DNA of 64,000 nucleotides from Candidatus Thorarchaeota archaeon (lineage in GTDB: Archaea; Asgardarchaeota; Thorarchaeia; Thorarchaeales; Thorarchaeaceae): the NCBI GenBank assembly GCA_963726195.1, contig CAVSBO010000007.1, positions 1-64,000 on the forward strand. The letters are read 5' to 3'. Positions 2,323 to 46,473 of this stretch are shown piece by piece. The notes under the pieces were generated by a model, which saw nothing but the letters and a program-made list of their open reading frames with translations, searched no databases and had not been told where the DNA came from. Within the stretch, counting starts at the first letter, position 1, and each line of letters begins with the position of its first letter. The position numbers were made by a program, and so were the translations under genes.

Positions 2323-4125
2323 CTAGGCGGCTTTTCTTCTCGTCTTGCAGAGTTCGACCAGCTTCCTAATACGGATCACTTTGGGCAATAGGTCCTCTTC
2401 CGTGGCCTGCAGCGTAAGAAGTGCTGCATGATAATCCCCTCTCTCAAGGATGCGCAGGACTGTGACCAACGATAGCATGTACTTCTTTCTGGTCGACTTG
2501 GCTATGTCTTCCATTTCCTTGATCAAGGATGAAATCTGGTCGCGTGCTTCTGGATGCCTTCCGAAGGTAATCTCAAAAACCTGAAAGAAGTCCTCAAAGG
2601 CATCGTCGTTCTCGTTGAATTTCTTAAAGCCCTCGGCGGATTGTCTGAAGAATCCGATGGCTTTCTCTGCCATCTCCGGGTCATTCGTGCTGAGCGCCTC
2701 AGTACCTGCATTCCTCATCCAGACCGTAGCCAGCTCAGGCACAGACATACTCTCGTAGAGGTTTGCCGCGTCTAGCGCCCTTTCGCAGGCCATCTTGTGA
2801 AACGTGGAATGCTTCTCGTTATCACCGAGCTTGTCTGCACAGTCGCCAGCCTTGCTGTAGAACTTAGAAGCATCCTCCATCTCGGCAGATGCAACTTTCT
2901 CCTCAGCCAAGCTCAGATAGATATCCTGAGCCGTCGAGAGGTATTTGCGCGAGGCTGCTGCATCTCCCATTTCACTGAGCACATCGGCGAGTTCCTCAAG
3001 TGACACTGCTTGCTGCTCTCTGTTGCCATTCTTTTCCTCTGTCTGAGCCTGCGCAAGGTAATAGTCGATTACCTGCTGGTATGTCACCGCAGATTCGCTC
3101 TTGGAACCCCACAGCTTCAGGCACATTGCCTGATGTCTGAGGTAGTCCTTCTGGGCGTCTGATTCATTCTCTTCTGCGGCCTTTGCGGCGAGAACACCAA
3201 AGAGCTCGCCAGCTCTCTTGTAAGCCCACTTGGCCTTCACGTTGCCGAGTTCCGCAAATTTGCCGCCTGCCTTGACCAACAGCGGCGCGACGACTTCTGG
3301 TGCTCCATCCATCTTGAGGTAGGCTTCTGCTGACTTGAGAAGAGCCTGCTTGCGGGCACCTGTGAGTCTCTGTTGCTGGAATGCCTCCTCAGCCGCGTCG
3401 TAAATATTCCCGGCCTTTTCAAAGAGACTAGATGCTTCGTAGAGCTCCCCTGCCTCTATCATGGTTCGGGGAGCTTCGGACAAATCTCCACGGAGTTGCA
3501 TTATTTGTGCAACCTCTGCAAGAGCGTTCCCCGCAGAGAGTAGATCCCCTGCGTTCTTTGCGGCTTCTGCCCATCTGAGCGCAATTCTCTGGGCACGATC
3601 GTCAATACGCGCACCGAGCTCGTTGTCACCCGATGCGTAGTAGAGCCTGCCAACTTTCTTCAGAAGCGCCACTGCTTCGCTGAAGTTCTTCTCGTCTTCC
3701 CGTGCGTCCGCTAGGCCCTCAAGAGCATCAGCTGCCCTTGTGTTGAAATCCGTTCTGCTGTCTTCAGTCGCTGCGAACTCCGCAGCCCTGAAGTAGAAAT
3801 CAGCGGCACGTTTGTATTGGGTCGCTCTCTCAGCAGTCTTAGCAGCTGCTACACTGAGCCTGACTATCTCGCTATATGCCTCTGCCTTCGCTTCCTGCCT
3901 GACTAGCATCAGAATTGCTTTCTCAATTGCGTCGTAATACTGCTGGGCTTTGTTCAAATCTCGATAGACTTGTGCTCCCTGTTCGTAGAGCTTGGCCGCT
4001 GCACCATGAGCACCCTTTGATGAGAGCGCATCCGCAGCCTGAACAAGAAGCGCACTGGCGGCCTCCTTATCTCCGCTTGAGAGTGCTTTCTTAGCCTTCT
4101 CTATCAGGTCATCTGTGGGGGTCAC
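2323..4125 (-). CDS. alpha-solenoid TPR / alpha-SNAP-like repeat protein
   Basis: Repeated A..Y..AA..Y helical pairs over 600 aa. Confidence 0.7.
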   Translation of the reverse strand: MTPTDDLIEKAKKALSSGDKEAASALLVQAADALSSKGAHGAAAKLYEQGAQVYRDLNKAQQYYDAIEKAILMLVRQEAKAEAYSEIVRLSVAAAKTAERATQYKRAADFYFRAAEFAATEDSRTDFNTRAADALEGLADAREDEKNFSEAVALLKKVGRLYYASGDNELGARIDDRAQRIALRWAEAAKNAGDLLSAGNALAEVAQIMQLRGDLSEAPRTMIEAGELYEASSLFEKAGNIYDAAEEAFQQQRLTGARKQALLKSAEAYLKMDGAPEVVAPLLVKAGGKFAELGNVKAKWAYKRAGELFGVLAAKAAEENESDAQKDYLRHQAMCLKLWGSKSESAVTYQQVIDYYLAQAQTEEKNGNREQQAVSLEELADVLSEMGDAAASRKYLSTAQDIYLSLAEEKVASAEMEDASKFYSKAGDCADKLGDNEKHSTFHKMACERALDAANLYESMSVPELATVWMRNAGTEALSTNDPEMAEKAIGFFRQSAEGFKKFNENDDAFEDFFQVFEITFGRHPEARDQISSLIKEMEDIAKSTRKKYMLSLVTVLRILERGDYHAALLTLQATEEDLLPKVIRIRKLVELCKTRRKAA

Positions 4126-41305: not shown

Positions 41306-41459
41306 GAGCTGGCCGCTTGGCGGCTTCACAACCAAAACCGATGCTTGCGGTGGAAATAATGTGACGATTTTGTCACAAGCTTTTTTAATACGGACCCACG
41401 CAGCGGAAAAAAGACAAGCTCCTAAGAGACCAGCGAGCAAGGGACCGGAGTAGAAGATC

Positions 41460-42648
41460 ATGCCCACAGCAATGCTTCTGATTGATTGGGACAGTAAGAT
41501 AGGTGCTGTTTTGAAAGCAAAGGTTCCCAAGGATTTTGCTGACTATTACAAGGAAGACCTGAACACAGAAATCATGCGTATCTTCACGTCGCATGCTATG
41601 GGTGACGCCACTGCAGGATTCTCGTCTCTAAGTATTCGAATCGGCGGCGAGGAGTATGGCGTCGCATCATACTATACAGGAATCCTTCGCGAGGAGGAAC
41701 AGTACTGTGTGTCGCTGCTTCTGACTCCTTCTGAAGATCCGAAGATGTATGAAGCGGCAATAACCTCCATTGTTTCTCCGCTCACGAATGCAGTTGTCTC
41801 AATGACTGATGCTGAGTTTCAAGCAGAGTTTGAGAACACCTACCGTAGAATAATCAGATTGGCTGGCATGACCGATGAGTCGCGTCTTGCTCGACTATTC
41901 GCTGACGAAGTCTCAAGGGCTGTCTTTCCCAAGCTTTGGAAGGGAGGCATATCCAAAGAGGATCTTGAGGAATGGCTGAAGATGGTCACAGGCCTACCTA
42001 GCGTCAGCGTGGACTCCATACTATCACCATTTGAGGAGCTGAGGTATCATCAAGACCGACTGGGTCGACGAGATTGGTAGGACCTGTATCTTCATGATAA
42101 AAGACCTCGAAGTTTTCCGTGCCCCGCCACTACAAGCCATGGAGGCTGCTGGTTCAATCCTGGATCCTGAGCTTGCAGCTGAGTACAAGGGCGAGGTGCT
42201 TGAGTTCCTGACAGAGTGGCAGAAGACACCTGACGATACAGTGGCCGTTGCTCAGGTTTTGGCAGACCCCGATTGTTATGATATGATGAATGAACTGAGG
42301 CGTCGGCCTGCAAACATATCTGAGCTTGAGGCCACACTTGGGATTCCGCCCAAGGAACTGAAAGAGGCAATTCAGACTCTTAAGAAGTACAGAATTGTCT
42401 CTGAGAAGAGACGGAAGGGATCCTCCGGGGAGTTCGACAAGTGGCTGTTCCTCCTGAATGATATCCGTGTACGGCTCTTTTTCCCTGAGTATTTCTTGCA
42501 GTCTCTCATAGTCGACCTCGAGAAGACGCCAGACGATCCGAAGGCAAGGGAGATGGTACATCACCACCTGCGCCTGCTACGAGAACAACTTCCCACGATG
42601 AGAGTATTGTCAGCGTTGGTGAGCGTTACCTGTTTGGTGTTCGCCTAG
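41460..42648 (+). CDS. uDENN/longin-like N-domain + winged-helix protein (frameshift ~42045)
   Basis: LIDWDSKIGAVLKAKVP uDENN-like start; two wHTH-like segments. Confidence 0.6.
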
Positions 42649-42729
42649 GTCAGAAGCCTTCTGCGTATTCTCTGGCCCATTAGAACGTAGTTGGCGTCAG
42701 GATTCTAGAACAGGAATAGAAGAAGGGCT

Positions 42730-43605
42730 CAGGCGAGGAATTCGGCGAATTATGACTAGACACCGGCTCCGCTCGCCCGATATGTTGTCTTCCTGCTATA
42801 TGAGCTCCTCCATTCTTGGGCTCGTGATTGGCAGTTATTGGTTCTCTAGTTAGGAGATATCGTTGAAGACTGTCTGTCGGTTGATTGAGGGTTGGGGGCT
42901 GAAAGCATTTTCGGTGAAAACCGAATGAACGCAAAAACAGGCGGACTACCAATCGTTCCTCCGGGCGGTCCTTGGTAAGACCCTCTGAGAGGAGCCAATG
43001 CCCTCCTGTGGACAACTACGGTTCACAGGACCGCAACTAGTTTAGAGCCCGGTGCCAGTTCCAGAATTGGGACTGGCACCCGCAACATCTTCTTATGATT
43101 GGGCTTTCGCCCTGCCGATTCCTGAGCAACCATCCTCAAAGTCTCACCCAAACACCGGATGAACCGGGTTCGTTGTAGGCACCGGCAAGATAGGAAAATC
43201 TGACCATTGACAGACCGTTTAATGCAGCCTTTGTGAGAGTCGGCTATCTGTCGACAACTTCGTGATAAACGCGACAAAGAAGATCCCACAATCGGTTGAC
43301 GGCGAGGGGAAGTTCCTTTTGCTTTCGAAGACTAGGTAAATTCATAAGCTTCGTTTGCCAAGGATGCTTGGTTGATTCGGGTTTCCGGCCTGAATCAATT
43401 CCGTAAGAGTGGTTATGTCGAGGAGCGCGGTTCCCGTCTGGAACTCGCTTAAAAAACGGTCCCTAATCTCCGAGTTTCCAATTGGTCCCCCTTGCCATTG
43501 CAAGTACTTGCGCATTACCGGTTTTTGCCGCGCGCCCCGACAATCGAGCTCACGGAAGCGGGAGCTGCACGATGTGGGCTTAGGCCTAGCGGCTTCCGCC
43601 CACCT
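42730..43605 (+). ncRNA. putative large structured ncRNA, unclassified
   Basis: No credible ORF; more than 10 helices whose G-U pairs favour the + strand; a GAAA tetraloop; long-range pairings. Confidence 0.55.
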
Positions 43606-43615
43606 TTGTCTCGGC

Positions 43616-44524
43616 TCATCTCATCGCATTTTGGTACCAGATTCGTCTGTATCTTTCCTTGTAGCCAGCCGCACAGTACATCTTCATGGCAGGAACGTTT
43701 CGGCTGTCCGTGATCAACTCTGATTGCATCACGCCCATAGAAGCCGCGCGAATCAACACCTCGCTGAGAATTGAAGCCCAAAAACCGTGATGTCGGGAAC
43801 GAGCTGTCACAACAATCCCATCCATGACCAAACGTCTCATTTGGACAGGACTGCCCGTCGGTCCGAGCAGCGTTCCAACGCAATATGCTGCAGTACGTCC
43901 CTTGTGCAAACCAAAGACGGCCAAGTCTTGGCAGAACGTGTCAAGTTGAATCATTCTAAGGTAGTCGTCAGGGGTGACCTCTTTGTAGTTGAATAGACCC
44001 TTGAACAGACTGTTCTGGAGAGATGCCCATGTGCCCGCGTCTTCCTCTCCTATGGATCGGTAGGTCAGTTCACTCGGACGAGCTTGAACTTGACCGATGT
44101 CAAAATGAACAAGCTTGACCCACTCCAGCATGGGCTCGAAGCCCCGTTTCTCCAAGAAAGACATTGTATCAGGTCTGAAGCTTGGCACATTGCAGATGAC
44201 CTTCTTTGCTCCCAACTCTTCGGCTCTTGCAACAAGATTGGCGGGCAGCTGCGCCCCGATGCCCGCCTTCCTGAATTTTGGATGAACGTACATGGTCAGA
44301 AGAACGATGGATTCAGTTCTCTCTGTACCCTTGACAGTCACTCCGAATGCCGCGACCTGTCCTTTGTTGCGTACTAGGACTATATCACGTGCGATATCGA
44401 TACCGGGGACCGAATAGATTTGCCTGAAGTAATCTCAATCTAGGTCCATGTGGTCGGGATTGTCAAGGCCATTGGCTGCATTATAGATTGCCGCAATCCT
44501 TTCAAAAATGGATGAATCAACCAT
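43616..44524 (-). CDS. tandem GNAT acetyltransferase (5' frameshift; start approximate)
   Basis: VHPKFRKAGIG..FLEKRGF; second domain N.PA.KMY...GY. Confidence 0.8.
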
Positions 44525-44728: not shown

Positions 44729-46473
44729 ATGATTCACAACACTTTCTTGGTATACGCTGGAACGGTTCTCGCCTCGTCACAGTACTGGCCGACCACCGTC
44801 ACCCCTGACGAGATTGACGAGTTCATTACAACGAGAGCAGACCTTCTAGCGGAACACGGCGGCTCCATGGACCTCCCGCTCATAATCGGGGACAAGAAGT
44901 TTCTCGCGCGAACTGTGGAGTCTGACATGCTTCTCATCTTTGTCACCGACAAGGGTGAGGATGAGCGTGTTGTTGCCGAGAGACTCGACACAGCGGCAAA
45001 GGAGCTGGCAAAGAAGATCAGAGCGAGCGGGATTCGTGGTATTGCAAAACAATATGCCACACTCATTGAGCCCATGATCACTACTAGGCTCAAGATTGCC
45101 CTTGTGGGAGAGGGTGGTGTTGGAAAAACAACAACTCTGCAACTACTCTTGGGCAACAGTCCTCCATTGTCCTATGTGCCCACGATTGCATTGAACCTTG
45201 AAACGGTCGAGAACATCCGCTTCGGCAGCTACTCTCTTGTCCTATGGGACTTTGCAGGTCAGGAGCGTTTCAGAACTCTGTGGAAGTTCTATTTCCATGG
45301 GGCGGATGTCATATTCTTGGTATGCGATTCGACCCTACGTAATGTGATTGTTAGCAAAGACATACTGAAGCTGATAAGACGCGACGCGCCCAAGGTCCCG
45401 GTGTTTGCGTTGGCAAACAAACAGGACAAGCCCAATGCGATGAAGCCCGAGGTTATCCAGAAGATTCTCGGCATTCCCACCTATCCTATGGTGGCCATCG
45501 ACAGGGACCGCAGAGATGAGATGCTCAAGATACTGCTGACAGCCGCTGCTCAGTTCGTCGGTGTGACTTTGCCCGATGTACCCACTTCCGAGCTGTTTCG
45601 ATTCAGTGACCAAGCCGCAAAGAGCACGATGAAGGGTAAGGCAGCCGCTCGCGAACCGCCACAGCCAGAAGAAGCAGAAGAGGAAGTTATCGAAGAAGTG
45701 CTGGTTGACGAGCAGGGCAATGTGGTTGAGGGCTCAGAGGAATACGAAGTCGTGGAGGAAGTCGTCGAGGTCGTCGACGAAGAGACGGAAAATGAGGCCG
45801 AAGCGGCCCGACAGCCGCAGAGGAAGCACCTCTGGAACAGGAGCAGGGAGAAGCACCCCTGCAAGAAGAGCCGGAGGAGACGGCCGAACAGGAGCAGGAG
45901 GAAGCACCCCTCCAAGAAGAGCAAGAGGAGCCGGCTGAGACCGAACCGGAGATTGAGACAGAGAGCGAGTCTGGTTTCGGAGTCACAGAAGGCGAGGTGG
46001 AATCATCGGCAGAAGAGGAGCAACCGGTGGATAGCGCCTATCCCGAAGAAGAACCCGAAGAACAATTCTCGAGCTCAGAGGTTGCTAGTGATTCTTCCGA
46101 TGTTGCCAAACAGCTGATTGCAGATGCCTTGGACGCAGACGACATAGTCGCCGCAGAGATAGACCGGGTCCCTAGTGAGCATCTAGGCGCAGCTCTGGAC
46201 GCTATACGATGCGATGAGACACTGTCAACAGAACCTGAGAACGATAACGTCCATGCGGTGGGCAACAAAGCCCGACGAGACTTGGACAAGGTCCTAGGTC
46301 CTTCATCCGGCAAGGAAAGCGGCGCCTCTGATCGTCGTAAGATATCTGAGAGCCCGATGGCAGTGGATCAAGATACAATCCGTGAGCTAGACAAGATTAT
46401 CGATAACTCAAACACAGAAGAAAAGCCAAAGTCTACTCGCACAAGGCTGTTGTATGACGACGAGGACGAGTAG
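44729..46473 (+). CDS. longin-like domain + Arf/Rab-type GTPase + acidic tail (frameshift ~45810)
   Basis: MIHNTFLVY longin-like start; GEGGVGKT, PTI, WDFAGQERF, NKQD; Glu-rich tail. Confidence 0.8.
45835..45936 (+). repeat. two imperfect 51-bp tandem repeats within the acidic tail
   Basis: GAACAGGAGCAG..GAAGCACCCCT.CAAGAAGAG at 45835 and 45886. Confidence 0.8.

Follow-up and report, generated by a model that had tools for sequence, protein, structure and literature searches.

OLE, GOLLD, and ROOL are structured intergenic RNAs of 500-900 nt that show covariation and whose function is unknown. The CsrB and RsmZ RNAs sequester proteins by means of a short motif that is repeated, in variable copy number, in loops and junctions. 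In type I toxin-antitoxin mRNAs such as ibs/sib, a short ORF present in multiple copies is combined with a sequestered ribosome-binding site (RBS). In RsaE, an unpaired UCCC binds mRNAs and blocks initiation (PMC2790875). At the level of the nascent peptide, the motifs listed as stalling strongly in E. coli include the triplets G/PP/G and D/PP/D (PMC5811046). Here, we describe a locus of an Asgard archaeon that was compared with each of these systems.

The window, i.e., the whole stretch of 64,000 nucleotides that was analyzed, lies on contig C7 of the 2.9-Mb genome of a Candidatus Thorarchaeota archaeon (G000). It contains a gap without a long gene, which begins where a longin-like/wHTH gene (41460-42648) ends and extends to the stop codon of a convergent GNAT gene (43616), beyond which lies an Arf-type GTPase gene. 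In the product of the longin-like/wHTH gene, the C-terminal ArsR-type HTH was identified with Pfam and the N-terminal longin-like domain was assigned by eye. This gene is split by a one-base insertion at 42040-42043 into two ORFs (41460-42080 and 42094-42648); it is full-length in most relatives, and the insertion is probably an assembly error. The acidic tail of the Arf-type GTPase shifts frame at ∼45790-45830, where the E-rich stretch goes on in a different frame as far as 46473; this is probably a second indel error. The product of the GNAT gene (43616-44500) has a pair of acetyltransferase domains; the gene's true start is probably upstream of 44341, the listed position, and G001, G003, and many other genera lack this gene at the locus. 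Elsewhere in this genome, there is a tRNA-Sec gene (C13:134005-134095).

The initial annotation had read positions 42730-43605 as one densely structured + strand ncRNA of about 0.9 kb, without a credible ORF and in the size class of OLE, GOLLD, and ROOL. Its local stems (43051-63/43068-80, 43004-13/43021-30, 42910-25, 43371-81/43389-99, and 43574-79/43598-603) are all present. The assignment to the + strand is consistent with both the base pairs in the stems of the homologs (82 G-U vs. 29 A-C) and the folding of the 876 nt of the gap relative to shuffled sequences (z = -4.58 for the + strand vs. -2.41 for the minus strand). The window gave no Rfam match at E ≤ 10, and the exclusion of RNase P, SRP, and rRNA was upheld, with the RNase P and SRP RNA genes (RF00373 and RF01857) located on other contigs. 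A broken coding sequence was not found either: overlapping ORFs of 88-122 aa lack a substantial Pfam match and, in relatives, are interrupted by indels that are not multiples of three. The absence of a credible ORF therefore holds for long ORFs, but the region does contain a probable ORF of 17 codons (Table 1).

Although the region folds better than shuffles, the signal is limited to two blocks, 42820-43095 (z = -4.2) and 43365-43606 (z = -2.7); no folding signal relative to shuffles was found in 42650-42820 (z = +0.7) or 43095-43340 (z = +0.1). The segments before and between the two blocks align poorly even with the nearest relative (G002). Here, we refer to the first block as unit B and to the second as RNA A. 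RNA A occurs without unit B in all of the family genomes examined other than G000 and G002, unit B occurs without RNA A at a second locus (upstream of a DapA-like gene), and each has its own TATA-like box and its own terminal hairpin. By their distribution, RNA A and unit B are two independent small units, each presumably transcribed on its own. Of the long-range helices proposed in the initial annotation, 42872-80/43207-15 and 43416-30/43528-42 both exist, but the former, which would bridge the two blocks, is not kept in G002 (-17.9 vs. -9.8 kcal/mol) and competes with the conserved 5′ hairpin of unit B, to which its own 5′ arm belongs. The third, AAAAAACGGT/ACCGGTTTTT, is not conserved across homologs. 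One large multi-domain ncRNA that spans the whole 0.9 kb would agree with the z of the whole region (-4.6) and with the two + strand blocks being adjacent in G000 and G002. However, a single large RNA is unsupported because A and B occur separately and the bridging helix is lost in G002; in addition, the linker has neither structure nor conservation, and block B bears a coding signature. We regard such an RNA as highly improbable, and the 0.9-kb gap is very probably a composite region. RNA A, the conserved unit, measures ∼235 nt, the two blocks are separate in relatives, and each has a TATA-like box and a terminal hairpin of its own; therefore, the size class of OLE, GOLLD, and ROOL does not apply. 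The coordinates of all features are summarized in Table 1.

Table 1. Features of the locus, in window coordinates.
Feature	Position	Strand	Evidence or remark
GGGACC in the 5′ leader of the longin-like/wHTH gene (ATG at 41460), candidate target of RNA A	41441..41446	+	Complementarity
TATA-like box of unit B	42795..42802	+	TATA-like word in the same column in 4/4 copies
Unit B, structured short-ORF transcript	42825..43094	+	z = -4.2
Hairpin burying the GGUGA RBS (42913-17) of unit B	42910..42925	+	Predicted accessibility
17-codon ORF MNAKTGGLPIVPPGGPW, probable	42925..42978	+	Open in 4/4 copies
13-bp terminal hairpin of unit B and pyrimidine tract	43051..43094	+	4/4 copies, two compensated pairs
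BRE/TATA-like promoter of RNA A	43332..43348	+	Family consensus CYAGAAAGCTTCWTATG; putative start site
RNA A, structured ncRNA of Thorarchaeota family f1	43368..43603	+	5′ end estimated within ∼5 nt
Variable 5′ hairpin of RNA A	43370..43400	+	Stem verified; kept in G002
Core domain of RNA A closed by P1 (43423-30/43528-35)	43423..43535	+	RNAalifold
C-rich unpaired junction CCCCGUC of RNA A	43431..43438	+	≥90% conserved
Helix P2 (43439-47/43471-80), loop showing GGUCCC (43458-63)	43439..43480	+	97.8% paired
Second GGUCCC (43484-89) and conserved CUUGCGCA (43507-14), junction back to P1	43484..43514	+	Alignments
3′-terminal hairpin P4 (43558-68/43589-99), its 5′ strand conserved and CGGAUGCGG-like, and the pyrimidine tract that follows	43553..43607	+	Covariation, fold

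The second copy of unit B (C3:725054-725325) was the sole match when the region was compared with its own genome by tblastx. The same two loci are present in G002, and these four copies were the only ones found with model R2 in 86 family genomes; metagenome contigs added only copies of the G002 type. Common to all four copies are the TATA-like word, a 5′ hairpin, the hairpin that buries GGUGA, and a terminal hairpin of 12-13 bp with a pyrimidine tract. GGUGA is a genuine Shine-Dalgarno (SD) word in this genome, its first three bases have an unpaired probability of ≤ 0.02 in every copy, and the ORF starts 7-9 nt past it, again in every copy. The peptides consist of 17 and 18 aa in G000, ending in PPGGPW or PPGGPWA, and of 15 and 17 aa in G002, ending in PPDGPW or PPDGPWVF. 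Matches to this pattern with PIFPPEGPW lie inside an ABC permease gene and are unrelated. In the 11 codons shared by the copies, eight of the 10 variable columns are at the third position (P = 4e-4, or ∼3e-3 allowing for six frames), and the sole indel among the ORFs measures 6 nt. We consider it likely that this ORF is translated. Unit B could instead be a structured RNA that does not code for protein, or a mobile element in decay, with the ORF being incidental, as its two loci per genome, its narrow distribution (two species), and the limited statistics obtained from few copies might suggest. This is unlikely, however, given the third-position bias, the triplet indel, and the SD word at the right spacing, and no transposase, terminal inverted repeat, or further copies were seen.

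Unit B thus read as coding seems to be a young duplicated mini-gene for a Pro-rich peptide of 15-18 residues ending in PP(G/D)GPW. In the RBS region and ORF, the two copies of a species are the closest to each other (0.80-0.92 in G000 and 0.76-0.83 in G002, as compared with 0.55-0.71 across species), while past the ORF the closest sequences are those of orthologous loci. Judged from these alignments, the within-species likeness suggests that the copies undergo gene conversion or that the peptide is under joint selection. With its RBS hidden in a hairpin, unit B would most likely act as a translation-gated leader or a stalling peptide, or encode a microprotein. Like diproline leader or arrest peptides (of the MgtL type or with EF-P/aIF5A-dependent stalls; PMC5811046), it has a short Pro-rich ORF, a structured RBS, and a strong hairpin with a pyrimidine tract, and its PPG and PPD resemble the diproline stall motifs of E. 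coli (PMC5811046). Unlike those leaders, its two copies co-evolve within species, and neither locus shows an evident co-transcribed gene downstream, because both downstream units (the DapA-like gene and RNA A) have their own TATA-like box. The multi-copy short ORF with a sequestered RBS is shared with ibs/sib, but a type I toxin is unlikely because the peptides are Pro/Gly-rich, polar, and not hydrophobic; in a further difference from ibs/sib, no conserved antisense unit was seen. Unit B is therefore presented as a candidate archaeal stalling or leader micro-peptide, with two copies evolving in concert.

In collecting homologs of RNA A, the upstream longin-like/wHTH protein, which was found in 81 of the 86 family genomes, was used as an anchor, and the downstream spacer was read in ∼50 loci. 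DNA searches with the 3′ block gave matches in three congeners, and in the spacers of the anchored loci, RNA A lies behind a conserved BRE/TATA-like word. Covariance model R1 detected exactly one copy of RNA A in 24 of 26 family genomes. Of the remaining two genomes, one has a copy that turned up at the syntenic site, and in the other the sequence can be aligned despite a weak score; RNA A is therefore present in all 16 genera of family f1. A homolog also occurs in a Candidatus Thorarchaeota record, in agreement with the Asgard origin proposed in the initial annotation. RNA A is nearly always located between the longin-like/wHTH gene and the Arf-type GTPase gene. It is a stand-alone unit and not the leader of the Arf-type GTPase gene, because the latter has its own TATA-like box and the convergent GNAT gene intervenes in G000, G002, and others.

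RNA A was not found in the 124 other Asgard genomes searched or, under looser filters, in five other Asgard genomes. Nor was it found at the syntenic junction in 19 loci from outside the family, in which the two protein genes are often directly adjacent. Two weak R1 matches in family f7 have no GGUCCC loops, look like the antisense of coding sequence, and were judged to be chance matches; loose DNA-pattern searches of genome and metagenome contigs were flooded by such matches. A search of 17 homolog loci against Rfam gave only four matches, all below the gathering score (E = 3.7-9.4), and the region had no match in a phage collection. RNA A has short words that we take to resemble group II intron domain V, U6, or U4, and these identities were rejected, with no Rfam match at E ≤ 10. 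No paper on an Asgard ncRNA of unknown class that is shared by a whole family came up in the literature searched. RNA A is thus an RNA family new to Rfam and to the literature searched.

The alignments of these homologs provided the evidence on the structure of RNA A. Helix P1 was returned without a prior by RNAalifold from a plain MAFFT alignment, with compensatory changes in seven of its seven pairs, and an unbiased scan of covarying column pairs placed P1 in all of its top six positions. Double changes were observed in 21 of the 30 pairs of P1, P2, and the 3′ hairpin; the upper helix of P4 is 93.7% paired, with double changes in six of its seven pairs. In an alignment of 52 distinct sequences that was fitted to the covariance model, 93% of the core cells pair and 14 of the 16 core pairs have double changes, with six of eight for P2, and P1 arose independently of this fitting. 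The real value of core pairing was reached by none of 500 shuffles, and slid controls were far lower. These counts are inflated by the relatedness of the sequences; nevertheless, the changes recur in many genera. We are therefore highly confident, with little room for doubt, that RNA A is a real ncRNA. The proposal of an unclassified structured + strand ncRNA, with homologs and covarying helices, is borne out for RNA A, but not the size and unity of a 0.9-kb RNA.

In homologs, the conserved promoter word of RNA A precedes the first GGUCCC by 85-128 nt, and it resembles the boxes upstream of the tRNA and SRP genes of this genome. An imperfect palindrome, TGCGA-N-TTYNCAA, occurs 47-105 nt upstream of the promoter in 12 of 28 loci (among L019-L040), all of genus g6, and was not seen in the window; from its sequence and position, it is possibly a transcription-factor site controlling RNA A. 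The RNA begins with variable 5′ hairpins, which in genera beyond that of G002 are replaced by other hairpins or are lacking. Helix P1 then encloses, in order, CCCCGUC, P2 with its GGUCCC loop, the second GGUCCC, a variable hairpin, CUUGCGCA, and a U tract, and the terminal hairpin follows. The variable hairpin of the core is kink-turn-like (GA/GAUGA) in L016-L018, L023, L025, and L208 (genera g3 and g16), a pattern that suggests L7Ae binding in those lineages. There are two to three copies of GGUCCC per RNA A, and additional copies in some genera. The CCC of the P2 loop is predicted to be unpaired, and unpaired UCCC motifs, by predicted accessibility, are conserved; CCCCGUC, CUUGCGCA, and the 5′ strand of P4 are as conserved as GGUCCC. 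No conserved internal partner was found for GGUCCC (43484-89) or CUUGCGCA, and no extra helix or pseudoknot in the core was better than shuffles. With no other conserved pairing detected, the invariant words are probably available for some other partner.

One candidate for this partner is the leader of the upstream gene. Tentatively, and somewhat short of calling it probable, we propose that RNA A is a trans base-pairing regulator with a UCCC seed, similar to RsaE. Helices P1, P2, and P4 would hold several C-rich motifs single-stranded, the GGUCCC loop would pair with GGGAC(C) directly 5′ of the GGAGA RBS of the longin-like/wHTH gene, and this pairing would lower the translation initiation of the target; other G-rich leaders are probable further targets. 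In 12 of the 16 genera, GGGAC precedes the start codon by ∼20 nt, immediately 5′ of the GGAGA SD word; it is found in none of seven orthologs from lineages outside the family, in which RNA A was not found. The candidate seed is only 6-9 bp long. When leaders of this genome were ranked by pairing, the target leader was 2/1733 for the P2 loop and 17/1733 for the second GGUCCC, but only 654/1733 for the whole of RNA A. In one clade of g6, AGUCCCU in RNA A faces AGGGACU in the leader. Across genera, there was no covariation between RNA A and the leader and no advantage of cognate over non-cognate pairs (p = 0.23 and p = 0.43 in two tests), GGUCCC is retained in genera whose leader has lost GGGAC (g12, g13, g16, and most of g5), and GGGAC is not enriched among leaders genome-wide. 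The longin-like/wHTH leader as a target leaves CCCCGUC, CUUGCGCA, and the 5′ strand of P4 unexplained.

Conserved, unpaired words of this kind might alternatively be sites for a family-specific RNA-binding protein, with RNA A acting as a sponge or scaffold (CsrB/RsmZ-like or a small RNP) through GGUCCC, CCC, and the other invariant words. The two to three GGUCCC copies, more in some genera, are kept whatever the leader, several invariant unpaired words have no RNA partner, and the kink-turn-like insertion in genus g3 may indicate binding of L7Ae. However, no partner protein has been identified, and a sponge fails to explain why GGGAC is conserved beside the RBS of the neighboring gene only within the family; we consider this role rather unlikely. 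The complementarity to the leader could also arise if RNA A were a 3′ element of the mRNA of the upstream gene that loops back onto its own 5′ leader, and wherever synteny is readable, RNA A is indeed co-directional with and downstream of the longin-like/wHTH gene. Its own conserved BRE/TATA, a distance from the stop codon that varies from < 100 to ∼770 nt, and the insertion of unit B with its terminal hairpin between the gene and RNA A in G000 and G002 make such an element improbable.

Similarly doubtful is the idea that RNA A is not an ordinary mRNA-targeting sRNA but the core of an undescribed Thorarchaeota housekeeping RNP, e.g., a U3-like 16S chaperone or the scaffold of a new RNP. As a U3-like chaperone of ribosome assembly, RNA A would pair with 16S rRNA near the central pseudoknot: the CCCCGUC junction could pair over 10 nt, including G-U, with 16S positions 919-928, CUUGCG could pair with the CGCAAG loop at 863, all three 16S genes read contain both sites, and RNA A is single-copy and housekeeping-like. 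On the other hand, G-U-containing matches of such length arise for every motif in 16S and 23S, the GGGACC site of the 16S of G000 is absent in G022 and G012, the alignment of RNA A has no conserved C/D boxes, Rfam gave no U3 match, and RNA A was not found outside one family. A U3-like role is accordingly very improbable. Pairing of GGUCCC with 16S h39/40 was rejected because the target is not conserved, and pairing with tRNA 3′ ends because none of the tRNAs found has a matching end. A trans-acting anti-Shine-Dalgarno role was rejected because CACCUCC is present in the tail of the 16S and normal SD words show enrichment. The 16S genes (G000 C18 = L245 ∼2376-2405; L246, L247) have an insertion just past the h27 loop, which is ∼30 nt in G000 and ∼870 nt longer in G012, and the 16S of G000 has another short insertion (L245 ∼3020-3052) just before the anti-SD tail; these are possibly bulge-helix-bulge introns.

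RNA A offers both an RNA backed by covariation and a precise candidate target in the leader of the longin-like/wHTH gene, which is highly conserved and lies beside an Arf-type GTPase gene. If the base-pairing reading is true, it would represent RNA-based translational control of a eukaryote-like signaling locus in a close relative of eukaryotes. Similar to OLE, GOLLD, and ROOL, RNA A is structured, intergenic, and covarying, but it is ∼235 nt long, archaeal, restricted to one family, and without an Rfam match. It resembles CsrB and RsmZ in having a repeated short motif with variable copy number, but the motif is GGUCCC and there are only two to three copies. With RsaE/RoxS of Staphylococcus and Bacillus (PMC2790875), it shares a stand-alone intergenic position and repeated unpaired UCCC complementary to a G-rich leader. 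In contrast to RsaE/RoxS, RNA A is archaeal and has no sequence or Rfam similarity to them, its motifs lie inside a domain closed by a long-range helix, and its putative seed site is located just 5′ of the SD word rather than on it.
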